Shown here: piece after piece, positions 23,637 to 54,900 of the stretch
How the letters are laid out: each line of letters opens with the position of its first letter
Numbering within the stretch: position 1 is the stretch's first letter
NCBI GenBank assembly: GCA_964016885.1
Contig: OZ024752.1
Span: forward strand, 43,834,001-43,898,000
Reading direction: 5' to 3'
DNA: 64,000 nucleotides
Origin: Eledone cirrhosa
Taxonomy: Eukaryota
Notes under the pieces: generated by a model
The model's database searches: none
What the model was told of the DNA's origin: nothing
What the model saw: only the letters and a program-made list of their open reading frames with translations
Position numbers and translations under genes: made by a program

Positions 23637-25160
23637 GATATTGATGGTGTTGTGGCAATCATGCCTTTCCTAATGATATTGATGAGGCTGTGGCAATCAT
23701 GCCTTTCCTAATGATATTGATGAGGCTGTGGCAATCATGCCTTTCCTAATGATATTGATGATGCTGTGGCAATCATGACTTTCCTAATGATATAGATGAT
23801 GCTGTGGCAGTCATGCCTTTCCTAATGATATAGATGATGCTGTGGCAATCATGCCTTTCCTATTGATATAGATGATGCTGTGGCAGTCATGCCTTTCCTA
23901 TTGATATAGATGATGCTGTGGCAATCATGCCTTTCCTATTGATATAGATGATGCTGTGGCAATCATGCCTTTCCTAATGATATTGATGATGCTGTGGCAA
24001 TCATGACTTTCCTAATGATATAGATGATGCTGTGGCAGTCATGCCTTTCCTAATGATATAGATGATGCTGTGGCAATCATGCCTTTCCTATTGATATAGA
24101 TGATGCTGTGGCAGTCATGCCTTTCCTATTGATATAGATGATGCTGTGGCAGTCATGCCTTTCCTATTGATATAGATGATGCTGTGGCAGTCATGCCTTT
24201 CCTATTGATATAGATGATGCTGTGGCAGTCATGCCTTTCCCAATGATATAAATGATGCTGTGGCAATCATGCCTTTCCTATTGATATAGATGATGCTGTG
24301 GCAGTCATGTCTTTTCCAATGATATAGATGAGGCTGTGGCAATCATGCCTTTCCTATTGATATAGATGATACTGTGGCAGTCATGCCTTTTCCAATGATA
24401 TAGATGATGCTGTGGCAGTCATGTCTTTTCCAATGATATAGATGATGCTGTGGCAGTCATGCCTTTCCCAATGATATAAATGATGCTGTGGCAATCATGC
24501 CTTTCCTATTGATATAGATGATGCTGTGGCAGTCATGTCTTTTCCAATGATATAGATGAGGCTGTGGCAATCATGCCTTTCCTAATGATATAGATGATGC
24601 TGTGGCAATCATGCCTTTCCTATTGATATAGATGATGCTGTGGCAATCATGCCTTTCCTAATGACATAAATGATGCTGTGGCAGTCATGCCTTTCCTATT
24701 GATATAGATGATGCTGTGGCAGTCATGTCTTTCCTATTGATATAGATGATGCTGTGGCAATCATGCCTTTCCTAATGACATAAATGATGCTGTGGCAGTC
24801 ATGCCTTTCCTATTGATATAGATGATGCTGTGGCAGTCATGCCTTTCCTATTGATATAGATGATGCTGTGGCAATCATGCCTTTCCTAATGATATAGATG
24901 ACGCTGTGGCAATCATGCCTTTCCTAATGATATAAATGATGCTGTGGCAGTCATGCCTTTCCTATTGATATAGATGATACTGTGGCAGTCATGCCTTTTC
25001 CAATGATATAGATGATGCTGTGGCAATCATGCTTTTCCTACTGATATAGATGATGCTGTGGCAGTCATGCCTTTCCTATTGATATAGATGATGCTGTGGC
25101 AATCATGCTTTTCCTATTGATATAGATGATGCTGTGGTAGTCATGCCTTTCCCAATGATA
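23637..25160. repeat. 38-bp minisatellite, about 40 copies
   Basis: Unit gatatagatgatgctgtggc(a/g)atcatgcctttccta(a/t)t-like. Confidence 0.97.
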
Positions 25161-27442: not shown

Positions 27443-27660
27443 TTATGAAGGGGTAGCATTTAGAATTTCTACTTCATCTACAAGTCGATCATTGCTGTCT
27501 GTTTCTACAAGTCCAATTCTTTGAACAACAGTCATTCCAGTGCTGACACGACCAAAGATGCTGTGTTTCCCATCTAGCCATTGGGTTGGTGCTAGGGTTA
27601 TGAAAAACTGGCTTCCATTAGAGTCAGGTCCACTGTTGGCCATGGATAAAATACCAGCAC
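27443..27660 (-). CDS. PPIL1: PPIL1 exon 4 (last coding)
   Basis: [20 protein letters not shown]...NATPS*. Confidence 0.96.
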
Positions 27661-29487
27661 CTAAAAACCAAAACACAATCTCTATAAGTACATAAACTAT
27701 TGTTTTAAAGACAATAAATAAATATTTAATTTCTTGACAAAACTTTAACAAAGCTATACAGTTATTATATAGTGAATTGACAGTATCGGTAGAGCGTCAG
27801 ACAACAGGAAGCATAGAGTTACGACCCTTTACCATCTGAGTTATAATCCCGCTACGGTTAGCTTTCCCTTTCATCCTTAGGGCGTTAATAAAATAAAGTA
27901 CCAGTAATGCACTGGAGTTGATTTATTCAACTTTCCCCTCCCCCCAAATGGTTGGCCTTGTGCCTAAATCAGAAATCATTATTATATAGATTTGGATATA
28001 TATAACATGTTGGATATATATAACATGTTGGATATATATAACATGCTAGATATATATAACATGTTGGATATATATAACATGTTGGATATATATAACATGT
28101 TGGATATATATAACATGTTGGATATATATAACATGTTGGATATATATAACATGCTAGATATATATAACATGTTGGCTATGTATAACATGTTGAATATATA
28201 TAACATGCTAGATATGTATAACATGTTGGATATATATAACATGCTAGATATATATAACATGTTGGATATATATAACATGCTATATATATATATAAATATA
28301 GGAGTTATATATAACATGCTAGATACATGGAGTTATATTATATATAAGATGTTAGATACATCAAAATTGTGTTTATCAATATATTTACCTGTGTGTTTTA
28401 ACTCATCTGACAGCTCATCTTCAAAATGTTTGCCATAAATCGACGCTCCACCTCGACCTTTCAACAAAAACACGAATAAATAAAACATAGAAAATAAAAA
28501 AATTATAAAAGTTAAAGTAGCGCTGTGTGGTTTCAGATTCGATGCCATTGCTAAATAGGGAAGTAGGTGAATGTCTTCTGAGTGAAATTTGGAAGACAGA
28601 AGCTGAGTAGAAGCCTGTCAAATGGACTGATCCTGTAATTCAGAGGTCTAGGCTTGTCACACATGCTGAATCTCCGACATTTGAAACATAACTTGATCCA
28701 TTAGTTTTATTCCTCTGTAGTTATCCTTTCTAGAGTATCACCTTTTCCCTTGTAATAATTAATGATTATGTTGTCGCACCTGTCATTAGGTATGGTCCCG
28801 TCCAGTATTATCTCATAGATTACACAGGTGACTAGTTCAACTCCTACTCCCCAGATGCTTTCAGAACCATAATAAAAACAAAAGTAATAATCTTACCAGT
28901 TCCAGTGGGGTCACCTCCTTGAATCATAAAATCCTTTATGACTCGGTGAAATTTTGTGCCATTGTAGTAACCCCGTCTAGAAAGTTCTGCAAAATTACGG
29001 CAAGTTTTTGGTGCCTGCTTCCAATACAGTTCAAATGTAATGCTGCCCATTCTTCAAAAATATATAAATGAAATACCATTTAGTAAATTTAATTGAACTA
29101 AATTTAAAAATAAAACATCTTTAATTTATTTTCGTTAACGATGTATAGATAGTAGTTTAACCCTTTTGTGATCATACTTTTCATGAAACACACTGCCAAA
29201 TCATTTTCAAATAATTTAGAAATTATTCAAACGTGGGGGGATTTAGTAATAAGCTGGTGTTTGAAGAATAATTTAAAGTTATAAAGAAACAAGGCCATAG
29301 GCGCTAAACTGTACATATTCGTTTGAAGTTACTTCCATTTTGTTTGCAATTTTATATACCAAAAGCGAAATATACCCAAATTTCAACACATATAAAGTAA
29401 AAATATAAAAATTTATGTGGCTCACGTTGTTTCAAAAGTAACTAAGGAAGGTTGCCAGGAGCTGGACGGCATGCCATAGGAAGACAT
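27443..29487 (-). CDS. PPIL1: Peptidyl-prolyl cis-trans isomerase-like 1 (spliceosomal cyclophilin), 4 exons, 167 aa
   Basis: Exons 29487-29426, 29051-28897, 28457-28389, 27660-27443 are all GT-AG and in frame (504 nt). Protein [81 protein letters not shown]...[33 protein letters not shown] closely resembles human PPIL1 (recalled). Confidence 0.96.
27785..27978 (+). mobile_element. tRNA-derived SINE in PPIL1 intron 3
   Basis: Decayed tRNA-like head followed by the TTTCATCCTTAGGGCGTTAATAAAATAAAGTACCAG core. Confidence 0.65.
27992..28330. repeat. 18-bp minisatellite in PPIL1 intron 3
   Basis: Unit tggatatatataacatgt; produces the MLDIYN pseudo-ORF. Confidence 0.95.
28389..28457 (-). CDS. PPIL1: PPIL1 exon 3
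   Basis: [23 protein letters not shown]; acceptor AG, donor GTAAA. Confidence 0.95.
28897..29051 (-). CDS. PPIL1: PPIL1 exon 2
   Basis: [10 protein letters not shown]...[11 protein letters not shown]; acceptor AG, donor GTAAG. Confidence 0.96.
29426..29487 (-). CDS. PPIL1: PPIL1 coding exon 1
   Basis: ATG at 29487; [20 protein letters not shown]; donor GTGAG. Confidence 0.88.
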
Positions 29488-30916
29488 GTTGGATAATTTA
29501 GTTTTACACCGGTAACCGCTACATAAACTATTATTCAAATCATTAATTCGTATATTTTCTTTTCAAATATATTTTTGTATCCAGATAGTTTCTAATGAAA
29601 GAAAAAATTTCGAATGTTTCATAATTCCCATAATTGGAATAATGGATTTGATGATCGAATAATACAACATCGTATTATTGATTAGCTCCACCGCTCCCCC
29701 AAAACGATACATCTAGTACGTTCAACATTTATTTGATTTCCGAAAAGATTATTATAAATGACTTTAAAGTGATTTAAAAGTTCAACATCAATTTTTCTAA
29801 ATAGATAATACGAAACTAAAGAAGCTAACTATATTTCTGTACGATCGAGAAGAATATTGGTTTAAGATCAGTTAAAATATTTTTTTTAAAGAAATGTTCA
29901 TAATAGATCCGGAAGGAAGAACACATCTCGCCCGATTCATTATATTCATTACATATGTACAAGTTAGAGTTAGGGTCCGAATTTACCAATTAAAGAATTA
30001 AAATATAATTTTTTTTTAAATTATTGCTAATATTCTTTCCCATCCTGCTGTCATGATAAAGTGTCCCAATGTATTCTATAAAAGGGTTGGTGTTAGGAAG
30101 GGTTTCCAGCCGTAGAAAACGTCATATGAGAGTGATTTTCTGACCTCTTCTTGTGACAACATATCCAACAGTTGTTTGTAAAGGTGAAATATTATAGTTT
30201 ATGAAGGCTAATATGACTTTATAGCTTATGTGGGCTAATATAACTTTATAGCTTATGTGGGCTAATATAACTTTATAGCTTAAGAGGGCTAATATGACTT
30301 AAATATTATTGTTTATGAAGGCTAATATGATTTAAATATTATAGTTTATGAGGGCTTCTCTTCTTGTGACAACCCATCCATCTGTTGTTTAGAAGCTTAT
30401 GTGTGTTAATTATATTTGTTTAAATCTGTTAAAGAATCATAATGAATAAAAGAAGAAATGGGAGTGTAAATAGCAGTAGTAGTGGTGGTGATGTTGTTGG
30501 TGGCGGTGGTGTTGGTGTTGGTGATGTTGTTGGTGGTGGTGGTGTTGGTGATTGTGGTGTTTGATTTTTTCCAGTGAATAGGAAGGATGTCGTGTAAACT
30601 AAAAGTGAGTTGTCTGCTGTAGCGTCATCCTTGACCTCTGACACAAAGAACTATTTATTCTAACATTCTGGACACTACTACTACTACTACTCCCTAAACT
30701 ATTTCCTTACTATATTTATCTTCTTCTAATTCCTCATTTGTCACCATCTATCCCTCTACAACCTCTGCAGTACTTGCCCAACCTTATATCCTCCACTAAC
30801 GTCATTTAAACCAAACATTTCTCCCCCGCCTTCATTCATTTTTCAAGAAAGGAAAGAAAAAAGAACAACAAAACACAAAACAAGTATATATACACACAAA
30901 TACACATATATAGCTA

Positions 30917-30956
<40 letters not shown>

Positions 30957-31065
30957 CTATCTACCTATATATATATATATATATACAAATATATACATAT
31001 ATATACACAAATATATATAGTGGTCATCATTGTTACCCTGACAACAACTAAAGCAGTGTGAGAGA

Positions 31066-31090
31066 ATGGATGCCAAAAAAATACATCCAG
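31066..31090 (+). CDS. Candidate first coding exon of the membrane-protein gene
   Basis: ATG GAT GCC AAA AAA ATA CAT CCA G|GTGAGT; strong donor, phase 1, in-frame stop upstream. Confidence 0.4.
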
Positions 31091-34000
31091 GTGAGTCACA
31101 TTTTCTTTTAACACCATCATTACCATATATTTAATGATTTTCAATTTAACATATCGTCATCATCATAGTTATTTTACATCCACTTTTTCCTGCTTGCAAG
31201 GGTGGGACAGGTCCTCTTCAACACAGCATCCCTCCATTTGTCACAGTCCTTCGTCATCTCCTCTGTGAACTTCAGCAATCTGAGGTCAGCTCTCATCACC
31301 TCTGCCCATGTTTTCCGTGGTTTTCTTCTACTTCGTCTTCCTTCCACTGGGATTACCTGGTAATCATCTTCCATGTGCATCACATGTCCATACCAATGTA
31401 GTCTTCTCTCCTGTACACTACAATTTATTCCTCTTATACACAATTTCTCTCTCAACTCGTCCAGGCTTGGTCACTCATGCACATTGACATTGCACATCCA
31501 TCAGAGCATGCTTGCTTCCTTTCTCCCCAACCTTTGCATATCCTCTGCAGTTGCTGCCCATCTTTCACTACTACGCAGCACCATTATAATAAAATAATAA
31601 ATAATTTGGAGGGAATTAGTAATACACTAACCTTTCTCATTATTAAGCTAGTGGTTTGGAACAATTTAACAAAGGTTCTCACATAAAAATTATGTTGAAA
31701 GATTTTTTTAGATAAATATGCATGCTTCAGAATAAATTTATATGATAGGATGAAAGACAGTTTCAGGTGTGTTAGTATCTAAAGGTTTTAATGTGTCTGT
31801 TACTATTAATAAAGAAATTTAGGATGGTGGATTGATAGAATGGGATAAAATGTGGTTTATGTTTTGGTTCTTTACATTCTAAGTTCAATTCCAGCCAAGG
31901 TCAACAGGTACTTGTAAGATTGGTAAAATAATCCAGAAGTTTCAGTTCATATAATATGATATAATGAAATTATTGTGTAAAGTGCTCAGGTGCACTACAA
32001 CTCGTCAAAGGTGCATGTATAGTACATAGAATAATACACAAATGTCACGGAAGTGAATAGTGTATGAGTCATGATATACATGTGTGTATGTGTATGGAGG
32101 GGGAACATTAGCTGTAGTGTTGGCGGATCTCGGGAAGCATGGAGGCCTTAAAGGATGCAGTGTCTCGACAGCTAACAACCGATGCAGGTAGTTTGTTCCA
32201 TGCTTTAGCAACTCTATCTAAGGCGGGTAAAATTCCCGAGATCCATGGACGAGTTCTCTCCAGCGGTCTCTGTCCCTCATTATCACTGCCATGTCCTGCA
32301 TCTCCAACAGACCAGTGTCTGTCCTTAGGGCATCAACATATGTTAACCTTGGTCTTCCTCTTCTAGTGTGTCCATGTAGGGGCTCCCAAAGGATTACTGA
32401 GTGCAATGTCAACTCTGGATGTCGGTGAGCATGTCCAGCTAACCTCAGTCTCTTCTGTGTCACTTTTGAGCTGACTTTTGGGATGCTCCCATACAGCTCT
32501 GAGTTTTTCATCCTCAGTGTATACTGATTAATGTTCAGCAACTCTGAGCGTGAAAAAATGTTTCCGAAAGTCATGGGAACTGTACTGTTTTCTGATTTTG
32601 TGGGCATGCCCACGCGTGTTAGACACATGGAAATCAAAAAGGTACTCAGGGTTGTTGTTGGCAAGATGGTTAACAATTTTGTGGGTGTTTACCAAGTCAG
32701 TTGCCAGGCGTCGGAGCTTCAATGTATCCATGCCCAGGGAAGCAAGGTGCTCAGAGTATGGTAGATGCCTGATGGAGGGTATTTGCTTGGTTGCACATCT
32801 CTGAACAGTCTCCAGGCGGTCAATGTTCTGAGCAAGATAGGGGTTCCAGACTGGAGATGCAAATTCTAAGTGTGGCCGCACCATAGCCATGTACAGCCTT
32901 AAATAGATAGCTGGAGAGCGGCTGACAAAGGTCTTGCTGAGTGATGCTAAGACACCCTCGGCCCTCTTGACAATTTTAGAGACGTGCTTTGTCCAATGCA
33001 AATCGCTGCTGACCGTAATGCCCAGGTCACGTTCACAAGAAGACTTCTTGATATTAGTGCTGTGGAGGGAGTATGTGGATGCTGGGTTTTTACTCCCAAA
33101 ATGCATGGTGGTGCACTTGTCCACAGCTAGCTTGAGTTGCCAGTCTGAGATCCATTGTTGCATTGTGTCCAGGTCAGACAGCAAGCAAGATCTATAGTGT
33201 TCAGGATCTGTCCTTTTTATCTCAGGTACAGCTTGATGTCATCTGCGTACTTTAGTACCGTGGAATTCTTTAAGTTGGCATCTATGTCATTAATATATGC
33301 CACAAACAAAAGGGGGCCAAGAATAGATCCCTGTGGTACACCAGATGACATCTTATATGGTGAGGAATGCTGTCCCAGAACCGTGACTACCTCTCTTCGA
33401 CTGAGAATGAAGGACTTCAACCAGTTAAAAAGATCATCCTTCACACCCATTGCAGAGAGTTTTGCCATAAGCCTTTTGTGTGGCACAGAATTGAAAGCTT
33501 TCGCAAAGTCAAGGTAAACAAAATCCACCCATGAGCCGCCATCAGTGATCCGGGTGATGTCTTCAAGAAGCTCGATAAGTTGATCACAGCAGCTGGAGTT
33601 GGGGATAAATCCAAATTGTGAGGGCCGGATAAGACTGTGAGAATTCCAGAAGTTGCAAAGTTTACAACCTGTGAATGTGTGTGTATGTTTGAGTGCCTAT
33701 ATATGTGTGTGTGAGTGCATATATGTGTGTGTGTGTGTGTATGTTTGAGTACATATGTGTGTGTGTTCGTTTCTAATGCCCCCAGCATTAGAAACGAAGC
33801 CACAATCCGTTCGGTATGAGCAAGACATGGTCATCTGACCTTGCTTGTCTCACAACTAGACAACTTGTCTAACCCATGCTAGCGTGGAAAAATAGACATT
33901 AAATAGTGATGATGATGATGATGATCAATTTTTGTGCCTACATAAAGAAAAACTTTGTGAAAATGTATGAAGTACTGATGAGAATGGTTTTAAGGCAGCC

Positions 34001-37000
34001 AGGAATTTGGGGCTATTTAATTGTTGGCATTTCTAAGGGAAGAATTGACCCCAGTACTAGACTGGTACTTTATTATCGACCTTGAGTGGATGAAAAGCAA
34101 AGTTGACCTTGGTGGGATTTGGACGTTCTAACAACTCTACCAATTCATTGCCTTCAATTCCAATAAAAGATATAAACCTGTAAATAATGAAACTATTCTT
34201 CACCAATTTACAATATAAAATATGTAAATAACATATTCTCTCAAGGATATAAAGTTAGAATATACAGGATCCAAACATGTGTGAAACACTTCAGCTAGTT
34301 TGCTGTTTCAACAACAGTCTACTGTATTACAAGATATGTTAACTCTTCAAATAAATATAAACAATACATTTTATATATGTGTTCCACCAGGAATCAAAAC
34401 AGCTCGTCTCAAATGCTTATCAATTGGTCCTTCTCAGCCAATAGACAACTGCACAACCATGGTCATTAAATATTGAAATAACTACACAACCTTCCTATTT
34501 CCTGTCACTCATTCATTGTGAGATTTAAAGCTTTTATGGAAATAGTAAAACACTCCTTATTTGAATAAGTAGCATTTTATAAATATTAGGAGTATATTTA
34601 TTATTTTACAGACACAGAAATGGCCAAGAAACTTACTTTGCAACTATATGGTATGGGGTTCTATCCCACTGCATGACAGCTTGGTCAAGTGTCTTCTACT
34701 GTAATCTCAGGCCAATTAATGTCTCTTCAGTGAATTTGGTAGATGAAGACTCAAAAGAAGCCCACCACATATATCTATCTTTCTATATACTACTAAAACT
34801 CTGTGATTGTGTGCCTGTCTGTAATTCAATACAGCCAAAATGGGAATATACTTTGAAAGGAAGTTGCCCCTCAAATGGGAATACAAATGGAATAAAACAA
34901 GATTCACGTAAATCGGAGCATGGGTTCCTGAGATACGGGTTTTTTCCAGGAAAATGAAAGAGAGAGAAAGAAAGCTGGTGGTGTTGTTGAATGAAATTAT
35001 AACAGGTGACAAAGAATCGAATACAGCATTACTGTATCTAGCTAACATTTGGTGACTGAATATTAAAAGTCATGTGTCATATAACTTGTGTTAGGACGGG
35101 ATGTGTGTAGCGAATATTTCCTGCTAAATAGGAACAGTTTCTAAATTTGTGTGTATGTATATATATATGAAAAGATTCAGGACCCCAACGGCTGAGCTCC
35201 GACCGTTTTGACAGCTAGATCCGAACTAAGCCTGTAGAAGCTATTTCTATATTAAATTTGTTATATATATACACACACACGCACACATACATATATATAT
35301 ATGTGTATGTATGTATATACATATAATAATAAATGAACGATTTATTATGCCTTCATTACATTTATTGAGTAGTGACATCCGTTTTGCTATTGATCAGCTG
35401 AAGGTTCGATCTGTATCAATCTGGCCCCCGACTTTGGTATCAAAGACATGTCGGACCTCTGCTGTGGTAATGAGGTTTGACGAGCTTTTGATTCCAGAGT
35501 CGGACCAAATCAATACAGACCGAACCTTGAGCAGATCAATAGCGAAACAGACATCACTACTCAATAAACGTAATGAAGGCATAACAAATGGTCCTTTTAT
35601 TATTATATTTACATTCTGCTTAGTTCTACACCTGAAAAGTAGACATCGAGTGCTCACTGAGTTGAACCTACAGTAGCTGCACGTTACACTCTCAACATAT
35701 ATCTATCTTGTGTTATAGTTTTTAACTAGCAATAACCTCGGATAACCTTCATTGGCTATCATACCTCCTATGTGCAAAGCTATGTATATATGTAAGAGAA
35801 TGTTGGGGTTAGGAAGATCAATTAAATTGACCCCAGTAGTTGATTATTTCATTGACCTTTGAAAGGCAGAGCTGTCTTTGACAATATTTCAACTCTGAAT
35901 GTAAAGAACTGTCATTAAGTACAATATTTTACTGATTCTAAAAAAGTGGAGCAATTATTAAAAATGTTTTTCAATGGAAATACAATTTAAGTAAAAGAGG
36001 AATGTTAGTCATAATAGGATCTGGGTCGGGGCCTACAGTAAGGAGTGAGAAGACAATTACATATTTGTACATTATCTATGTACTATACATGCACCTTTGA
36101 TGAGTTGTAGTGCATTTAAGTACTGTACACAATAATTTCATTGTTATTATCATATACTGCGCTACAACTCATTTAAACTAAGCAATTAATTAGGAATTTA
36201 AAAATTTTTATAATTATTATAATTAATTTCAGTTGTGTATTTATCATACTAAATAGCAAATTACGAGCTTAATTATGTCATATATTACAAAACTGAGTGT
36301 ACGCCTATGTTAGTATATAGTTGCATTTCATGTGTAAATACATATCTCACATATATATGGGTGTGTCTATATATATATATATATAGATATATATAATTGA
36401 ATATATGAGAAGGATGAACACCGATACAAGTATACATGTGTTCCAATTGCAAATGACCATATATTCAATTATATTACATGGCTCAGAAAGATGCCCTTCT
36501 TTGAGCTATTTAATTGTAAAAGACTATTTTGAGTTTCTAACTCAATCTATGATATATATATATATGTATATTTATTAAAATAACAGATTAAAGTTTAAGC
36601 AAAGAATCGTTGCTTTCACCCTTAAAAGGATCTTCTGAAACTACATTTATCCTTATCGATTTTAGTCAATTTTTTCCCTAAAGTGAATTGGACCTAAAAA
36701 TCTACATACAGCTTATCTAGAGCTGCAATTTATGCATCTTTAAATATAGAATATATCCTAAAGGCTTTACAGTGTTGATATTGTGGGGCCACATATACAT
36801 ACACACTAAATATCTTTTCCTTTCTAAATTTTCAGATTTTTGCCGTGTGCATAAGTGCAGTAGTAATAATATATCCTTCTTCGACCCGTGTAACTGTAGA
36901 CACTATTTCCAGTGCTCTTCAAATGGAACAGAAAACAGAAAATGTAATCTTACCACAGCATTTGTCTACAACAACAATATTGTAACATCTGTCAAGTGTG

Positions 37001-39273
37001 TCACATTGATGCCACTGCAAATAATGTCATGTAATGCACAAAATCCCTGGTCAGTGTGCAATATTGATCGCCCATGTGAGTATATCAATATCTTATCTAT
37101 CTATTTGATGACAGGTAAGAAGAATTGGCGTATTGTTGGGGGCAGGGAGGGAGAAGGAGGCAGCTGCATCCCCCTTCCTCCCAAAGAAATTTGTTGTCAG
37201 AAAATTATGAATGTCTACATTTCCCAAAATGATAGGAGCATCAATATGGTGGAGAGAATGAAGCAACTGTCACTATTTTGGGGTGGATAATAAATTGTTA
37301 TAGAGCAGCAGTACACGTCAATTAGTAATGAAGGGAGATATGAGTTTCAAATATCTATCTACCTGTATGTGTATATATACACATAGAAATAGTGGACAGC
37401 TTCCGTTACCTGGGTGACAAAATCAGCAGTGGGGGAGGGTGTTCTGAAAGTACAGTAGCTAGAGTCAGAACTGGATGGAAAAAGTTCAGAGAGCTTATAC
37501 CACTATTAGCCACTAAAGGGTTCTCCCTAAAAATGAAAGGCAGGTTATATGATGCCTGCATACGAACAGCAATGCTGCATGGCAGTGAGACCTGGGCATT
37601 GTGTGCAGAGGATATACGCAGACTAGAGAGGAACGAAGCTTGCATGCTCCGCTGGATGTGTAATAGTAATATACGTGAACGGCTAAGCATAAACGAACTA
37701 AGGAAAAAAATTAGAAATAAGAGGGATCAGATGTTGTTTACTCGAGAGAAGGCTACGTTGGTATGGTCACGTGATGCGCATGAAAGACGACAGCTGTATA
37801 ACAAAGTGCAGGGCAATAAAGATAGACGGTAGCCACGGAGTAGGCAGACCCAGAAAAACCTGGGACATGATAAATTCCGACCTCACACACTTACACCTCT
37901 CCAAGACAATGTCACTGGACCGAGATCTTTGGCGGTACTCAGTAATAGAGAAGACCCGCCTTACCTAAATACAAAGTAAAACCTACTACAGTCAGTAGGC
38001 ATCTCTAACAAAACACCCCCCCGTCCCACCACCCCCACCCCATCCACACCGCCCCTTTCAATGTAAAGTTATGTTGGTGTCACAACATCCAGGCCGAAAC
38101 AAATGAGATCGTGTAGGTGTCACGACAAAAAACACACAGTCCACGCTGTAATGTGGCTGTGTAGGTAACACGGTAAAAACCTCCCAGCCCCACACTGTAA
38201 ATGTGGTTGGTGTTAGGAAGGGCATCCAGCTGTAGAAAACCCGCCAGACAGTCCTATGCGAGCAAGACAATCACTCTTGCCTCAAGTGGGAAAACCCCCG
38301 TCCAAACCCATGCAAGCGTGGAAAACGGACGTTAAACGTTGATGATGAGAGAGAAACACATACATATATATATCAATAATATTAATAAATGGAATGTTGA
38401 GTGCTTCTAATCTGTTATAAACTAAATTTGTTGATTAATCAAATATCTATCTACCTGTGTGTATATATATATATAGAGAGAGAGAGAAACACATACATAC
38501 ACACACACACATATATATCAATAATATTAATAAATGGAAGCTATATTGAGTGCTTCTAAGCTGTTATAAACTAAATTTGTTGAATAATCAACAAATTAAA
38601 TAACTCATTGCTTATATATATCATCATCATCTTTGTTTAACGTCCATCTTCCACGCTAGCAAGGTTGGTCGGGTGACCGTGTCTTGCTCATATAGGACTG
38701 TCTGGCAGGTTTTCTACGGCTGGATGCCCTTCCTAACACCAACCACATTTACAGTGTGGACTGGGAAATTTTTTACCATGTTACCTACACTTTTTCCATC
38801 CCGTTCTGACTCTAGCTACTGTACTTTCAGAAGACCCTCCACAACAGCTGATTTCGTCACCCAGGTAACGGAAAGTGTCCACTATTTCTATAGAACCATC
38901 TGGGCAATAGAAAGGAGCTAGTATCCTATGGGCACTTGCTACTTATTGCACCTGAGCATCAGCCAAATATAAAGTCTACGTTCTTAGATAGTTTACCTGT
39001 GATCCCACTACATCTTTTATGTACCCATAGTGTGCCTTTGGGACATAAAATGGAATTTCTGCCTACTCCTTTCCTACACACTGAGCATGGCTATTTCCCT
39101 GAGGGCACCTATTTTCCTTTCTACAAACTAGAACTTTAGTCTTAGACAAGTTAAATTTAAGGCCTTTTGATTCTAGGCCATGCTTCCATGTTTGGAATTT
39201 CTTCTCTTCTCTAGTTCAGCCATAGTTTCAGCTATGAGAGTTAGATCATCTGAGTAGAGAGAGAGAGAGAGAG

Positions 39274-39306
<33 letters not shown>

Positions 39307-41015
39307 GAGAGAGAGACACATACATATATATAGAGAGAGACACACATATATATATATAGAGAGAGAGACATACATACATACATATATAGAGAGAGACCAA
39401 CCATATATATATATAGAGAGACACACACACATACATATATATATATAGAGAGAGAGAGACATACAGACATATATATATATATATAGAGAGAGAGACATAC
39501 AGACATATATATATATATAGAAAGAGACATACATACATGCATGCATATGCACACAAACTCACATATATAAACATTTTTCATGTTATGTATTTCAGTTAAC
39601 ATAACAAAATGCAGGAAAATCTGGCCAGAAGATATGGATGACTGGAAACCTCGGGAAATTGAAAGTTTCCTTCGTAAATTACAAAGGAAAAACCAAAGTG
39701 AAGATAAAGCCCCTATTTTATCTCCCTCTATAATGATACCTCTTCTTGTTGGTATCGTCCTATTCCTGCTCTTTATACTCTCTGTCACCCTTTTAATGTT
39801 AATTAAAAAAAAAAGGAAAAATCGGTTAGTCCCTTCTTTATTTGTATTTATATTTCTTGTTTTTTCATCATCAGCACTACCACCACCATATGGGGGTAGG
39901 GATAAGTGGAGGTGGGGTGGAACATCAGTAATTTTTGTAGGTTGTCTCTTGATTTTAAAAAAAACCCCAGAATTAGTCGTTTAGTTTACACAGTGAGACC
40001 CCAACCCATCCTAATTATTTTATAACATATGGGATTTCTATAAAAATCTTCTGTTTTTGTCATGTATAATGTTTTTTAATGTCTAAAGAAAATTGTCTCA
40101 GAAATGCTACCACTTAAAATAAAATTTCACCAGAGATATCATAATCATTATCACCGTTTAACGTCCACTTTTTCATGCTTGTATGGGTTAGACGGGTTGT
40201 CCTGTTGTGAGCAATGCCAGGTCGGGTGACCATGACTTAGTTTTTACAGCTGGATGCTCTTTATATTTAAGAAATTAACAGATTCTAGATTTGAGAGTAT
40301 ATATGGTATTTTATCTGTTACAGGTCGAAACCCAGTAATGATGGTGCAGCTGAAAGTCCTGACAAAGGTGTTATGATGGTTGAACCATCAGTTCAATATG
40401 AAGAAATTAAAGACCTGTGTCCAGTATGTCTTTATTTTCACTTTATTCAATGTTTCCTTTAACCCTTTAGTTATCAACCCAGCCATTACCAGCTCTGGTT
40501 CTATGAAATAAAATCACCCATTTTAAACGTTTACAATTTAAATTAAAATCTTCCAACATAATTTTATATAAGAACCTTACATTAAGTTACTATCTCAGTA
40601 ATGAAATAATTAATAATTTTAGTAAATCCCTCATAATTCTTCATTAGTTAATTGAAATAGAGTGTATGTCACTGAAAGGGTTAATTATAACACAATTTAA
40701 CAGATCAATAATTATTACTTCTTGGTATATCATCATTCTTTTCCCTTTTATTTACAGAGAAGAAAATGTTCCATTGATATGTTAAAGCGTCCTTTGCCTG
40801 ACTTTCCGACGGAACACGATTCTAAAGAAGTCCGCTACCAGAGGATTCTCTCCCTTTACAAACTCCCAGGAAAGAAAAATGATGTTAACATTGAAAGAGA
40901 TTCTGTAGCCAAGAATATAAACAGTGTTTACATTCCTGAAGAAGGGCAATATAATGTTTTACAAACTGAGAATGGCACTGAACCTAGAAATTCTCAAGAT
41001 TCAAGTAATGTTTAA
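31066..41015 (+). CDS. Uncharacterised single-pass membrane protein with Cys-rich peritrophin-A/CBM14-like ectodomain and Tyr-motif cytoplasmic tail (about 296 aa)
   Basis: Exons 36836-37075, 39596-39824, 40324-40423 and 40758-41015 join in frame with canonical sites (phases 1,1,2,0). Candidate 5' exons 31066-31090 and 34612-34650 are also phase-compatible. AATAAA at 41282. Confidence 0.75.
31150..31585 (-). mobile_element. Decayed RTE LINE 3' fragment
   Basis: REKLCIRGINCSVQERRLHWYGHV...RKPRKTW. Confidence 0.8.
31963..33660 (-). mobile_element. CR1/L2-group LINE, 5'-truncated RT region with nested insertion
   Basis: YLDFAKAFNSVPH, SGVPQGSILGPLLF, KYADDIKLY, VRPHLEFASPVWNPY; a second copy of its 3' end lies on + at about 36070-36150. 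Confidence 0.9.
32216..32536 (-). mobile_element. RTE-like fragment nested in the CR1/L2 element, 9-bp TSD
   Basis: AGCAACTCT at 32207-32215 and 32537-32545; the insert matches 20382-20703. Confidence 0.88.
34612..34650 (+). CDS. Candidate 39-nt exon of the membrane-protein gene
   Basis: TTATTTTACAG| ... |GTATGG, phase 1-1; encodes (D)TEMAKKLTLQLY. Confidence 0.55.
35321..35608. repeat. Imperfect fold-back element, arms about 138 bp
   Basis: Arms about 80% complementary with a loop of about 12 nt; similar ORFs on both strands result. Confidence 0.9.
36836..37075 (+). CDS. Cys-rich chitin-binding type-2-like exon
   Basis: TTTTCAG|...|GTGAGT, 240 nt, phase 1-1; FCRVHKC...FFDPCNCRHYFQCSSNGTENRKCNLTTAF...KC...SC...VC, with NxS/T sequons. 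Confidence 0.85.
37385..38348 (+). mobile_element. RTE LINE 3' fragment (same family as 18092-20352)
   Basis: DSFRYLGDKISSGGGCSES...MLHGSETW...GRPRKTW; ends in a (GAT)n tail. Confidence 0.93.
38620..39254 (-). mobile_element. Internally deleted RTE LINE fragment
   Basis: 3' UTR joined directly to RT/zinc-finger pieces (SDDLTLIAETMAELEK). Confidence 0.88.
39596..39824 (+). CDS. Transmembrane exon
   Basis: TTTCAG|...|GTTAGT; IMIPLLVGIVLFLLFILSVTLLMLI followed by KKKRKNR (positive-inside). Confidence 0.88.
40324..40423 (+). CDS. Cytoplasmic exon containing VQYEEI
   Basis: TTACAG|...|GTATGT; SKPSNDGAAESPDKGVMMVEPSVQYEEIKDLCP. Confidence 0.85.
40459..40684. mobile_element. TTAA-flanked piggyBac-type MITE in the last intron
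   Basis: TTAA-CCCTTTAG at one end and CTGAAAGGG-TTAA at the other. Confidence 0.6.
40758..41015 (+). CDS. Last coding exon (RPLPDFP, VRYQRI, YNVL, C-terminal SNV)
   Basis: TTTACAG| phase 0; open to TAA at 41013-41015. Confidence 0.85.
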   Translation, partial: RRKCSIDMLKRPLPDFPTEHDSKEVRYQRILSLYKLPGKKNDVNIERDSVAKNINSVYIPEEGQYNVLQTENGTEPRNSQDSSNV

Positions 41016-42046
41016 CATCAGATTGTGGCAATGAATGTCTTCAAGTTCAATTATCTCTCTTGCCTTTACTGAAGTGCCAAATAATATCTGTGAGGGTGTT
41101 TCATTATTCCAGTGCCTTAACCTCACAATAACCCACAACAATGCCTCCTCTTGGCTTACAGAAAATATTATAAGAAAATATTATACTCCAGGGCCCCTCT
41201 CTTCTAGTGTGGAATTCAGTGTGCTTTCTGTCTTTTTCTCTCATTAATTTCTTTCTGTCAATCTATTGATTATTAATTATCAATAAACAAACAAAAAAGC
41301 TGTGATTAACTAAAATGTCTATTTACAAGGCTAACCTTAAGTTTTTGCAACTAAACCTAAAGTAAATATAATTATATCTTTAACACAAAATATCATCCCC
41401 CCCCCCCCCCTCACCACTGCAAGAAAATAAATTACTTTGCTTCTCTGGCCCACTTAATTTCTAATCACAGCTAGAACACTCACTCATTCAGAGGATCCCG
41501 TTTGAGGGTGGAAGAAGAAATTGTTTGCTTAAACTTTTAATCTGTGCTAATAATAAATATTTATCCGAACTTTCCTGAAGAAGGACTTCTGTCTGAAATG
41601 TTGAAACTCCCTCCACTTCCACCAAGCATGAAACTAATATAAACGTGTAAAATTGCCTCCTGTGTTTTGTCTGTTTCATTTATTAACTATATATATATAT
41701 ATATGTGTGTGTGTGTATATATATATGTGTATATATATGTATATATATATGTGTGTATATATATATAATTAAAAGTTTAACAAGGTTCAATGAATTCATC
41801 ATTGAATAAAGTTTCACAATAGATTATAAGCACTCTACTGCAAGGTATATAAATATTGAGTTTTGTCATACCTAATCACTGCCACGACTAAATTATAACC
41901 ATCAATATAGTCAAGCATCAACTTATTTTATCTGATGAAGACGTACTGTTGAAATAGCTCAGTATCTCTGAAATATGTATAATAAAATATATTTGATCAC
42001 ATGAATGTCTATATTTATTAATATTTTGAAGTAATATATATATATA

Positions 42047-43853: not shown

Positions 43854-45629
43854 TTAGTCTTCTGTATGAATAGCTACATGTTTAGCTAGTTGGATTTTTT
43901 GAAAAAATGATTTACTGCAGATAGCACATTCATATGGTTTCTCTCCTGTATGAAGACGTTTGTGTCTAGTTAAACATTTCGCCTCAGAGAAAGATTTACC
44001 ACAGATCTCACAATTAAATGGCTTCTCTCCTGAATGAGTACGTTTGTGTCTAGTTAAATATTTTCCGACAGTGAATGATTTACCACAAATATCACAATGA
44101 TATGGCTTCTCTCCTGTATGATTGCGTGTGTGTTTGGTTAACATACCATTTTCAGAAAATGATTTACCACAGATATCACATTGATATGGCTTATCTTCTA
44201 TATGAACGTATTTGTGTCTGGTTAAGTAATTTCTTTCAGAGAAGGATTTTCCACAGATCTCACAATGATATGGCTTCTCTCCTGAATGAGTACGTTTGTG
44301 TCTAGTTAAATGTTTTCCATCAGTAAATGATTTACCACAGATATCACAATGATATGGCTTCTCTCCTGTATGAATACGTTCATGTTTAGTTAAATATTTT
44401 CCATCAGAGAATGCTTTACCACAGATATTACAAATATATGGTTTCTCTCCTGTATGATTCTGTTTATGTTTGGTTAAGATACCATTTTCAGGAAATGATT
44501 TACCACAGATATCACAATGATATGGCTTATCTTCTATATGAATGTATTTGTGCTTAGTTAAGTGTCTTCTTTCAGAGAATGATTTACCACAGATATCGCA
44601 ATGATATGGTTTCTCTCCTGTATGGATACGTTTGTGCCTAATTAAGTGACTACTTACAGAAAATGATTTATCACAGATATCACAGTGATATGGTTTCTCT
44701 CCTGTATGAAAACGTTTGTGTTTAGTTAACACACCATTTTCAGAGAATGATTTACCACATATATCACAGAGATATGGTTTCTCTCCTGTATGTATACGTT
44801 TGTGCCTAATTAAGTGACTACTTCCAGAGAAAGATTTACCACAGATATCACAACAATATGTCTTCTCTACTGTATGAATACGTTTGTGTATAGTTAAATG
44901 TTTTCTTTTAGAGAATGATTCACTACAGATAACACAGTGATATAATTTCTCTACTGTACAAATACATTTATGTTGAGTCAAGCCACTACTCTGAGAAAAA
45001 AATTTACCACAGATATCACAGTGAAATGGCTTCTCTCCTGTGTGAATGCGTTCATGTCTAGTTAAGACACTTCCTTCAGAGAAAGATTTACCACAGATAT
45101 CACAGTGATATGGTTTCTCTCCAGTATGAATACGTATATGTTTAGTTAAGTCACTACTTCCAGAGAATGATTTACCACAGATATCACAGTGATATGGTTT
45201 CTCACCTGTATGGATCCGTTTGTGTTTAGTTAAGGTACATACTCTGGAGAATGATTCACCACATATGTTGCAGTGGTATGGCTTCTCTCCTGTATGAATA
45301 CGTATATGTATGGTTAAATGATCATTTCGAGAGAACGATTTACCACAGAAACCACAGTAATACGGCTTCTCTCCTGTATGGAGAAAGGTGTGAGTAGTTA
45401 GACTACTTTTTTGAGTGAATGCTTTACCACAGATAACACAGTCGTACGGTTTATCTCCTGTATGAATACGTTCATGAATAATTAGGCTACTCTTATTAGG
45501 GAGTGATTTATCACAGATATCACATTGATATGAAGTCTTTCCAGTCTCTTCCACAATATCTACAGGAAAATCAATACTTTTCAACTCTATTTCATGTTGA
45601 ACCTCATTCTCGAATAATTCATTTTCCAT
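43854..45629 (-). CDS. C2H2 zinc-finger protein, 20 tandem fingers, single coding exon (591 aa)
   Basis: Twenty CxxC-x12-HxxxH units (finger 7 ends in C) with TGEKPY-type linkers after a 33-aa acidic N-terminus. Candidate acceptor TTTTTCAG at 45831; AATAAA on minus at 43196-43201. Confidence 0.96.
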
Positions 45630-46761
45630 TGTTTATTTTCTCTCACCAGTGAGGAGGTTACAATCTCAGTTCAGAGGAAATATTCACACTAATCCTATCA
45701 TATATAATATATATATACATATATATATATATATATGTGTGTGTATGTATCCCAGGTTCAATATCTGTTCTGTATGAAATCTTTGAGGTATCTCAGGTAA
45801 AAGATTGTTATGCCAATGTCACCTGATATTCTGAAAAAGTAAAGAAATCATATAAGATATACACAATACGTAATAAGTAGAGACTCAACAGAGGAAATTT
45901 TACTACATTTCAGCATTGATAAACTGTAAATATAAATATTTACTTGAATAATTCAACTTATCTCCTCAACCTCATCAATTCCACATTCCATGTTGGTATA
46001 GTCTTAGACTAGTCAGATGTCCTGCCACTTTACAGAAACTGTACCTTATGTATTTTATTGTCATCATATTAAAAATAGTCAGATTTTTTAATTTTCTTCA
46101 ATCACTTCATATATATTGCATTATACATAACAGAATCTTTTTATTTATTTTAAAATACAATTACCACTTCATTTTGTAAATTGTACATCAACTAATTTCC
46201 TACCGTCGTATGTTTTTATTACCTTTTTAGATTTTCCATCTGAAAACTTCACTTCAGTAAGTGTTTTATTATTCTTTTTGGCAATATTAAGACATGACCC
46301 CCCCACAAATATAACAATTTCAGTTCAGTTTTGATGGAACCCTTAAATAGGAACATACCTCTATCAGTCAGGCGCAAGAATTATTAATACCGAAAAGGAT
46401 GTAATATGAAACCAAAAACAATAAAAAAAGATTGAATATAATATTGAAAAAAGATACGATAAATGGTACACAAAAATAACATTAGTGTAATGAGTTAATG
46501 GTTATTGTGACAGTCACGTACGAATAACATGTCTCATGTAATTAAACCTATTTAATGTTGCTTTTAATGACAGGACTGGGACATTTATTATTAAAACAGG
46601 CGAGAAGCCAACAAAAGCTAATTAAATATGTTAGAGCTGTAAATAAAACTATCTTTAATTTGTTTTAAAAATATTATTAATGTAACTCCTTTATATGTAA
46701 TTATTGTATGAAGAGAAAATGATAAAGTATTAAAGTAATATTTATATTTATATATATATAT

Positions 46762-51951: not shown

Positions 51952-54900
51952 CTGTAGAAAAAAAAAGAAAAGAAAAGGGGAAAATAATAAAAATCACAAC
52001 TTTTTAAGCTTCTAATTTCATCTTTAGAAATGACATTTAAAAACTATTCACAGACCAGACTATAGTTTGATTGCTAATCACCATCGACACAGAATTAAAG
52101 GAAATTAACCTCATCAAGTGCAGTGAGCCGGAATAAATCCTGAAGCATTTTAAAAATCCAACGCCATAATGACTGTCAATTTGTTGTCATTGTTTTATGT
52201 CAGGCAAAATAGAATTCGAAGAATTATGTACTTTATCATCACACACCAATGACTGTAATATGGTTCCTCAACTCAGGATAATAAATTTCTTTAGAATGAT
52301 ATCATCATCATTTCATTTTACGTCCGCTTGTCCCTGCTTGCAAGGGTGGGACGGGAACTGATATATATATATATATATATATTATAGAGCAATATGTACA
52401 TCAATAAGTAGTTTCTTCATAATACACCAACCAATAACAAACACATGAGATTACAGGATAAACAACTAAAATATACTTACTCCCTTTTCGCTTACATCAG
52501 TCACAGGGATCTTCATGTTCCATAATTCTTTTGCTGAAGGTGGCACCGCATACAAGGGCATTTGTGGTGGTGGTGGTGGTGGTGGGTTGAAAGAAGCAAT
52601 TCCATTACTAAAACGGTGCATCAACATATGTGGATTGCCCTGTAATATTTCAGAAGTTTCACAGAGTTCAGTAAACTAAATGGCTGTTAAAATAGTTGTA
52701 GTTGCTAATACATTGAGACTAGTTAGTATGAATTTTTGGCAACATTAAATATCTATACATACTAACAGAAAAACCACCCTTCGGGTGGTTTTCTGCTAGC
52801 ATGTTTAGTGTGTATATTGATATTATACGCAGGTATATATACATGTAGATATGATACATCAAATAAAATTGTAATTGACAATATATAACACATAGAAATT
52901 GAACGAAGACTGTCTTATGTAATCAGTGACGTAATCCATGATACATTAAAAAAGACAATATTACATATAAAGTGCATTAGGAGAAAATTAGTGACGTAAA
53001 ATTAGTATGTTTATTTAAGCGATCGCCACCGGAAGTGTTGACATTTCAGAAATTTTAAAGAAGTGATTCTTTAAATAATAAAATATATTTAATGAACAGC
53101 CACGAAATTTAGTAGATAAATTATGTAATATTCATTCATTATTTATTCAAAGTAATCCAACTTATTTTACAAACGGGATAAAAAAAAATAAACCGTACAC
53201 AATCTCGCAGACCTTCCTTTATTATAGTTTAAATATACACATATTTATTTATGGTCATACACAGACAAAAATGCAACAGAAGGTTTCACGGTCCAATTAT
53301 GACCCTCTCCCCAGGTTGTCAGACATCTAGAATACCAATAGCATGTAAGTATGGCATTAAGACAATGGACAAGTCATCATCATCAAGTAGTTTATATTAT
53401 CAGTTTTGAATCTGTTTTCTCAGATGCAGTGGTCTTTACATAAAAGAACTGATGTGAAACTATTTAAATAGTTTTTATTGTAACCAACACAAGTGATGTT
53501 GCCATTACTGTGTTGAGACTTTATCCACTTTGTATCAATATTGAACAAAGACTTATGATGTCTACATTCACCCAAACTCAGAAAATAAAGAGAAATAAAG
53601 AGAAATCCTGTTCTTTGTCATTAGATTAAAGAAATAATTATTAACCAAATATACTGCAAATAATCAGCTGTGAGAAATCTATAAATTATAAGAAAATAAA
53701 AATCATTCTTTATAAACGTCTTACATGATAAGACTGTCCGACTTGATCTGGACGCTTGCCTTCCAGTAGATTGCTTCGAATAGTTGCATTTTCCAACCGA
53801 GACGGCACTCTCCCGTCATTAGGTCCAGTGACAGTAGGAGTCATTATTCCAGTAGAACCAGTAGATGATGTCATTACTGGGGTAGACATTGCAGCTGAAG
53901 CCATGATGGGAGAACTACTTGCAGGCCACTCCGAATTCAATTCTGAAGCAAAAACACAATATAGAAAATTTACTCAAATTACCAACAAAAAAACACTCCT
54001 AAAAAATCCTATGATTGGATCTAACAATGTTTACTAGTTTAGAAATTAGTAATTTAATAAAATATGATTAAAATAATGAGAGGAGATTTCATACCTGAAC
54101 TAAGTGCCCATATCATTGGGTTGAAGTCAGTTTCCATATTAATTCCTTGAGGTTTCTTCATCAGACGTTCTCCTCCAATAGGTTTCAAAAGCTTACGTTC
54201 ATCCATAATATTTTTCACCTGTTCTAAGGGTTGTGGTGGAGGAGTGGTACTCAAAGGCAAAGGAGACGATGGACCTTGAACCCCTTCAGAGAAGAAGAAA
54301 ATAAAAAAAATGGATGCAATGATTAAACATTTGAAAATAAAAAGCTGAAACCCTAATTACTTTTGAGCATCAGATGGTAATAATACTTTTCACAATATCC
54401 ATTCTATAATATACAAACACGGTAACACTAAATGTAAATATGGTGTGAGGGATTGGAGATTGCATGACTGGCTGACAACAGAATCAAGTGAACGTAAGGT
54501 AGAGAAGGACTCTTAGTCTTGTCAAGAACCTGACAAACTGTTGATGCCACAATAGAATGCACCCTGTACACTCTTAAAAATGAGTGGCATTAGGAAGGGC
54601 CTCTGTGGAAGCCATTCCAAAATATGGGATGTAGGAGCAAATGTGATTATCTGACCAAGTCCTGTCTTATTCCAACTCAAGCCAGAAACAGGACATTTAT
54701 CGATGATGTTTACTTTCATAGCTGCTTGCATCTAAAGGATTAAAAATATTTAACATTTTTTTATATTGTAATTTAAATTTAAAAACTCAAAAAATGATTT
54801 ACCTTTTGTACGTAGTGCTATAGATGGTGTACTGTTAGGTCGCACTGGGGGATGCATTGGTGAATATGGACGCTGCACTGGTTGGTTAGGATTCATCATG

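Follow-up and report, generated by a model that had tools for sequence, protein, structure and literature searches.

A five-exon gene of Eledone cirrhosa encodes an undescribed single-pass membrane protein, which we judge to be a real variant of the non-catalytic tyrosine-motif receptors that carries a new ten-cysteine module. The gene lies on the forward strand of contig OZ024752.1 (assembly GCA_964016885.1), within a 64,000-nucleotide stretch at contig positions 43,834,001 to 43,898,000, designated the window, and coordinates below are window positions unless another source is named. It is located between a cyclophilin gene and a zinc-finger gene. An earlier inspection of the letters of this stretch, designated the sequence-only reading, had proposed a chitin- or glycan-sensing receptor with Src-family docking motifs, assembled from four exons.

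Gene structure, transcript and protein architecture

The coding sequence totals 852 nt, corresponding to 283 amino acids and a stop, and its frame is unbroken across the exons. Every intron has a GT donor and an AG acceptor, and the intron phases are 1, 1, 2 and 0 (Table 1). In-frame splicing into one protein was as the sequence-only reading had predicted, with five exons in place of the four it had counted. The introns contain fragments of long interspersed nuclear elements and microsatellites.

Matches were found in four public sequencing runs from one study, none of them recorded as RNA, and two of these runs (X1 and X2) were compared. The X1 contigs cross exon-intron borders unbroken and are DNA-like. 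In X2 contig 12 (1320 nt), 36833-37075 abuts 39596-39823 with no letter between them, so that junction 2-3 is spliced. The exon 3 block is followed by 101 nt and then by 40758-41407; the 101 nt equal base 39824 plus exon 4 in length, and junctions 3-4 and 4-5 thus fit by length. The exon 2 match is preceded by 98 nt, and this length, together with a CAG overlap, is compatible with an exon 1 that reaches back to about 30990. This CAG overlap speaks for junction 1-2, as does an IHP motif common to all four orthologues described below. We infer from the splicing that X2, whose library type is unrecorded, is derived from RNA. A retrocopy is unlikely to be the source of the spliced contig, because genome searches with exons 2 and 5 gave no second strong copy. 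These results confirmed that the gene is real and probably expressed as a spliced transcript; of the junctions drawn from the letters, one was seen directly and two fit by length.

The stretch 30253-31065 may belong to the same gene as a putative 5' untranslated region (UTR), and it contains two microsatellites and several short upstream open reading frames (ORFs). A hydrophobic 28-codon ORF at 30491 was considered as a signal exon and rejected, as it is a GGT/GTT microsatellite that runs to a stop without a donor.

Table 1. Features of the candidate receptor gene and their positions in the window
Feature	Position	Strand	Remarks
Candidate long 5' UTR or first exon	30253..31065	+	Microsatellites and short upstream ORFs; X2 contig 9 unspliced to 30858
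Coding exon 1	31066..31090	+	Opens with the start Met and spans 8 codons + 1 nt; nine codons upstream, the genomic sequence has an in-frame TGA
Exon 2	36836..37075	+	9 of 10 ectodomain Cys, DPCxC, N-x-T sequon after fourth core Cys, PWxxCN
Exon 3	39596..39824	+	Tenth Cys (39610-39612), stalk, transmembrane helix (39730-39804, aa 134-158), basic stop-transfer cluster
Exon 4	40324..40423	+	Juxtamembrane part of the tail; Y190 in YEEI (40397-40408), predicted to bind Src SH2 and also matching the ITIM consensus
Exon 5, coding part	40758..41015	+	RKCSIDML (40758-40781), RPLPDFP (40788-40808), Y225 YQRI (40836-40847), stop
Exon 5, Y256/Y263 block	40929-40958	+	
3' UTR	41016..41548	+	X2 contigs 12 and 13; AATAAA at 41282, 41426 and 41552

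Ten cysteines (residues 11, 16, 27, 29, 35, 45, 63, 74, 83 and 94) lie ahead of a single hydrophobic helix of 25 residues (134-158), which is followed by KKKRKNR and a 125-residue tail. Five N-glycosylation sequons (N20, N38, N46, N90 and N121) are located on the predicted lumenal side. The helix was predicted confidently in an AlphaFold model of an orthologue, and the tail matched no enzymatic domain in Pfam. Each of these elements was found as the sequence-only reading had described it; the absence of a signal peptide had gone unremarked there.

In all five octopod proteins (the window protein and its four orthologues), only a short polar segment precedes the first cysteine, and there is no signal peptide as judged by hydropathy and flanking charges. 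The highest 9-residue hydropathy over the first 38 residues did not exceed 0.63 in the proteins of the window, Argonauta and Octopus bimaculoides; it was 1.57 in a bivalve relative, and the N-termini of O. sinensis and O. vulgaris were polar by inspection. By hydropathy and charge, the protein has the features of the type III class, namely no signal peptide, one transmembrane helix and positive charges on its C-terminal side. A type III topology with the N-terminus outward is predicted because there is no signal peptide and because the residues before the helix are acidic or neutral and those after it basic. Type III receptors with cysteine-rich ectodomains include BAFFR, BCMA, TACI and XEDAR (PMC6001812).

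Relatives and ancestry of the ten-cysteine module

A HMMER scan of 1.84 billion representative sequences with exon 2 as the query yielded six proteins at E ≤ 0.001: two orthologues, three ordinary multi-CBM14 proteins that matched in the core only, and a protein of the bivalve Solemya velum (ScPMuIL_009457, KAL5015187.1). A profile search added the O. sinensis protein and, via its cluster, that of O. vulgaris. The four orthologues, from Argonauta hians (GAB1598952.1), O. bimaculoides (XP_014773086.1), O. sinensis and O. vulgaris, share 46-49% identity with the window protein and keep all ten ectodomain cysteines, the transmembrane helix and the tail blocks, so that relatives preserving both the cysteine pattern and the tail motifs, as envisaged by the sequence-only reading, do exist. 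Public annotation calls the relatives uncharacterised or hypothetical throughout.

The S. velum protein resembles the window protein in its module, its lack of a signal peptide, its one transmembrane helix and its tyrosine-rich tail, which has seven tyrosines. It contains three repeats of the module with 10, 10 and 9 cysteines (one is missing in repeat 1), and the repeat signature (C, C, DPCxC, C, C, C, C, PWxxC, C) is the same as that of the octopod module. It differs in having three modules, canonical spacing between the fourth and fifth core cysteines, no sequon after the fourth, and tail motifs that could not be aligned. Profile-profile comparison of the octopod and bivalve modules gave a probability of 96.2 and a score of 52.5 over 65 columns; none of 40 column shuffles scored above 22.1. 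By this comparison there is a molluscan family of the ten-cysteine module, because the two profiles align well above shuffles.

The range of relatives is a lower bound, and the insensitive searches say nothing on squid, cuttlefish or gastropods. In the word-index search, none of 11 candidates scored with exon 2, though orthologues exist, so that blanks from it are weak; the bivalve query retrieved itself alone among 8000 scored candidates, and three octopod clusters were found among 3701 scored candidates. Two metagenome loci were rejected as relatives: each matched by chance over 10 residues and led straight into stop codons. In the E. cirrhosa genome (3.0 Gb), no paralogue or retrocopy was found when exon 2, exon 5 or a bivalve repeat served as the query, with counts that are lower bounds. 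This locus alone scored strongly with exons 2 and 5. With the bivalve repeat it ranked third of 8 (E 0.085), and matches extended past the CBM14 core only here and in one repetitive 911-residue ORF (E 8.5).

NCBIfam gave noise at the level of the transmembrane helix only, and Atlas gave no usable match for a full-length orthologue. No named family for this protein is present in the family libraries tested (Pfam, Atlas and NCBIfam), which agrees with the sequence-only reading. No paper naming the two gene identifiers was found in a literature search whose coverage left out most subscription journals and supplements, and topic searches of titles and abstract openings found none describing this architecture.

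The resemblance of the ectodomain to peritrophin-A (CBM14), already seen in the letters, was recovered by three methods. Pfam CBM_14 (PF01607) matched exon 2 at 20.0 bits (E 0.0008), below the gathering cut-off of 22.1 bits; the O. bimaculoides protein scored 13.7 bits, the Argonauta protein gave no match, and the bivalve protein passed with 57.3 bits over three repeats. The top Atlas clusters were CBM_14 at 0.87 with 163 shared features, which is a lead only. An hhalign comparison of the octopod alignment with 28 CBM14 domains of the same genome gave a probability of 88.7 and a score of 31.0 over 35 columns, confined to the N-terminal half; 40 column shuffles reached at most 16.6, and the reversed control scored 13.7. 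A sequence search of the PDB matched EHEP weakly (E 0.2), the sole molluscan CBM14 protein among the solved-structure matches, and an insect chitinase at E 1.2.

The module was then set against 29 canonical CBM14 domains, parsed from the 30 top loci fetched of 150 scored in the E. cirrhosa genome. The DP-x-x-C-x-x-Y-x-x-C core is as in CBM14 and the six core cysteines can be assigned in the same order. The CBM14 fold itself, a 3+2-strand beta-sandwich with C1-C3, C2-C6 and C4-C5 disulfides, is putative for the octopod module. After the fourth core cysteine the controls have Pro (20/29) and Gly (22/29) and never a sequon (0/29), whereas all five octopod proteins have an N-x-T sequon directly after it, replacing the P-x-G loop. 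The fourth and fifth core cysteines are 17 residues apart in all five, compared to 12 in 28 of the 29 controls. An aromatic residue two positions after the fifth cysteine was found in 24 of 29 controls, in none of the three bivalve repeats and in two of five octopod proteins, these being O. sinensis and O. vulgaris, a 95%-identical pair.

Chitin binding by the CBM14 domain of human chitotriosidase (CHIT1) is reported to involve P451, G453, L454 and W465 (PMC5459812, PMC4844120), which lie in its C-terminal half, the half that is remodelled in the octopod module. The window protein has N-L-T-T-A after the fourth cysteine and V-T-L after the fifth, and none of these four residues is kept. The protein is not filed as a chitin-binding member of CBM14, because its Pfam score falls below the cut-off and the binding residues are lost. 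The outer domain is likely a remodelled module whose first half is derived from CBM14/peritrophin-A, and it probably binds its ligand otherwise than by the classical chitin site. Compared with the CHIT1 chitin-binding domain, tachycitin and Aplysia EHEP, it shares the core motif, the order of the six cysteines and the 35-column profile match. It differs in its four extra cysteines, its PWxxCN...C extension and longer cysteine spacing, in its sequon in place of P-x-G, in lacking a Trp465 equivalent, in its sub-cut-off score, and in being membrane-anchored with a predicted signalling tail and no signal peptide. Peritrophin-A modules are known as parts of secreted matrix proteins, enzymes or effectors.

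Tail motifs and candidate receptor function

Across the five octopod sequences, invariant columns are concentrated in two tail blocks whose limits were drawn after viewing the alignment, namely residues 189-230 (27 of 42) and 253-265 (9 of 13). The tail linkers have far fewer (1 of 22 and 0 of 18), and the ectodomain module has 29 of 89. All five tails carry YEE[IV] and [RK]xLPxxP (R-P-L-P-D-x-P) and, further along, the blocks V-x-Y-QRI and YIP-x-EGQYN; in the window protein, 19 residues separate YEEI from RPLPDFP. The first two motifs, which were picked post hoc, occurred together in 2 of 100,000 tail shuffles. RPLPDFP is a class I SH3-type motif. The pattern of an immunoreceptor tyrosine-based inhibitory motif (ITIM; [ILVS]xYxx[ILV]) is found at Y225 in five of five proteins and at Y190 in four of five. 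The single-pass, non-catalytic protein with docking motifs described by the sequence-only reading was thereby upheld, its tyrosine and proline motifs being conserved in the octopod alignment. RKCSIDML (tail residues 200-207) is also invariant in the five proteins and may be a site for a basophilic serine kinase or carry an acylated cysteine.

Phosphorylated YEEI (pYEEI) is reported as an optimal ligand of the Src SH2 domain and RRPLPPLP as a high-affinity ligand of its SH3 domain, and Src is activated, or opened, when both domains are engaged (PMC4140816). The explanation we favour, with a probability of about 0.55, is that the gene encodes an orphan non-catalytic receptor with a predicted outward ten-cysteine module of peritrophin-A origin and a tail whose SH2 and SH3 sites would dock a Src-family kinase. 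The transmembrane helix would act as a reverse signal-anchor, and the 133-residue N-terminus would be translocated and would fold with five disulfides and N-glycans. A Src-family kinase would be held by its SH3 domain on RPLPDFP, and upon ligand binding or clustering the docked kinase would phosphorylate Y190. The pYEEI site would then capture the SH2 domain and keep the kinase open, after which Y225, Y256 and Y263 would be phosphorylated and further SH2 proteins recruited. A protein or a non-chitin glycoconjugate would be a likelier ligand than chitin at the canonical CBM14 site.

The protein would behave like a transmembrane adaptor with a genuine ectodomain. It resembles the transmembrane adaptor proteins (TRAPs; PAG/Cbp, LAT, NTAL, LAX and LIME) in its one transmembrane helix and non-enzymatic tyrosine-motif tail, and PAG also in a proline-rich SH3 site (PMC3342071). 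The extracellular parts of TRAPs are described as a few residues long and are thought not to bind ligand (PMC3342071), whereas the window protein has a conserved cysteine-rich ectodomain of 133 residues, so that it falls outside the short-extracellular definition of TRAPs, and it lacks a juxtamembrane CxxC. No sequence homology to TRAPs was found, the Pfam SIT match (E 8) covering the transmembrane helix only. It shares a cysteine-rich ectodomain, type III topology (here predicted) and a non-catalytic tail with TACI, BCMA, BAFF-R and XEDAR (PMC6001812). The ectodomains are unrelated, with no TNFR match in Pfam up to E 10. The tails of type III TNF receptors bind TRAFs and are not known to bind SH2 or SH3 proteins. 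The gene is a single-copy candidate for a molluscan receptor class unnamed in the libraries tested, and its product joins the candidate type III proteins as one whose N-terminus is long and disulfide-rich. Should the module bind chitin, animals would have a connection between the sensing of chitin and signalling by tyrosine kinases; if it does not, it would represent a new ligand-binding use of the CBM14 fold.

Several points weigh against the Src-docking receptor as set out above. The short motifs are ambiguous, and both YxxI motifs also match the ITIM and YxxPhi sorting consensus. The bivalve tail is rich in tyrosine but has neither YEEI nor RxLPxxP. Two AlphaFold models of the ectodomain were unreliable, and fold searches on the first were uninformative. 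The CBM14 controls were the top-scoring Pfam matches and are biased to the consensus. The 5' end of the transcript lies outside the aligned part of the X2 contig, which leaves room for a missed signal exon. Finally, chitin-binding CBM14 proteins are reported to use differing residues, so that loss of the CHIT1 residues is compatible with binding (PMC10619976).

The last point also favours a true sensor of chitin or N-acetylglucosamine (GlcNAc) oligomers with a relocated site, for instance at the Trp of PWxxCN, which is invariant in all eight modules. The CBM14 ancestry set out above speaks for such a sensor too, as do the bivalve repeats, in which a G-x-x-W loop is retained and the Pfam score lies above the cut-off. 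However, in the window protein a conserved sequon replaces the canonical loop, the spacing between the fourth and fifth core cysteines is 17 and not 12, and the Trp465 equivalent is absent. EHEP, which is molluscan, and Der p 23 are described as sharing the CBM14 fold without binding chitin (PMC10619976), and a single CBM14 domain is reported to bind GlcNAc3 only at about 10 mM (PMC5459812), which is weak for a one-module receptor. The chitin binding proposed by the sequence-only reading was not supported, and we consider a relocated chitin site doubtful. No better than doubtful is its extension to a molluscan family of signal-peptide-less receptors, from octopods to a chemosymbiotic bivalve, in which the secreted peritrophin-A module would have become a ten-cysteine surface sensor wired to Src. 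Such a sensor would recognise chitin or GlcNAc oligomers by means of a new Trp site and would be an animal counterpart of plant chitin receptors.

The tail could instead be inhibitory, an explanation that partly overlaps the favoured one. Y190 and Y225 would act as paired ITIMs, which a docked Src kinase would phosphorylate and which would recruit SHP2 or SHIP, as in the amphioxus receptor BbLcLRR. The conservation of the ITIM pattern at both tyrosines fits this, and it is compatible with the SH3 site. BbLcLRR provides an invertebrate precedent for an ITIM receptor associated with Src-family kinases, being likewise a single-pass receptor phosphorylated by them on ITIM-like tyrosines (PMC8211107). 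Its ectodomain consists of leucine-rich repeats and homology to the window protein is not expected. The first motif of the Argonauta protein, however, lacks the hydrophobic residue at -2 and yet keeps YEEI, which is a better fit to selection for Src SH2 binding, and an inhibitory role appears rather unlikely.

Less likely still is an endocytic receptor or a cell-matrix anchor with little signalling, in which the tyrosine motifs would be AP-2 sorting signals and the proline motif would bind a trafficking or cytoskeletal SH3 protein. YxxPhi motifs bind AP-2, and three of them are conserved in the tail. CBM14 modules are common in matrix proteins, and at least 143 matches exceed the cut-off in the E. 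cirrhosa genome (of 150 scored). Sorting alone would nevertheless not require the acidic stretch that follows Y190 to be conserved jointly with the neighbouring class I SH3 motif, as it is.

Least probable of all is an ordinary type I protein with a signal-peptide exon that both this analysis and the public gene models overlooked: the first 100 nt or so of the spliced contig lie outside its aligned part, but four public gene models begin 8-11 residues before a conserved HP-x-FC, one identical protein covers two O. sinensis RefSeq accessions, the bivalve relative likewise lacks a signal, the head-to-head cyclophilin gene leaves only 1.6 kb, and a scan of the forward strand from 29500 to 36835 found no usable signal exon among six hydrophobic ATG-led ORFs, of which only one, a TG repeat, was followed through to a donor-like site, and there the phases were wrong.

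Neighbouring genes and other genome observations

The cyclophilin gene, probably PPIL1, occupies 27460-29487 on the reverse strand, and its exon at 28898-29050 matches Pfam Pro_isomerase (E 4e-22). Its first coding exon starts at 29487, head-to-head with the candidate receptor gene and 1.6 kb from its start codon, and a shared promoter is possible. On the other side, a C2H2 zinc-finger gene that consists of one ORF and encodes about 17-18 fingers lies on the reverse strand at 43857-45632, convergent with the candidate receptor gene. Low-complexity ORFs of 672 residues (54753-56768) and 208 residues (58674-59297) are located on the reverse strand between 52500 and 59300 and had no Pfam match at E 0.01; the start of the longer one has a possible likeness to the end of the KH domain of MASK/ANKHD1. 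Two minisatellite arrays, at 23640-25160 and 27970-28330, have units of about 38 nt and 20 nt by eye.

Elsewhere in the E. cirrhosa genome, fourteen weak partial CBM14 matches (21-26 bits) lie 20-120 kb apart at C4:94.30-94.81 Mb, which suggests that a divergent CBM14 gene has expanded in tandem. At C6:74.99-75.21 Mb, one cluster comprises more than 20 CBM14 exons, which probably belong to one or two very large peritrophin-like genes.

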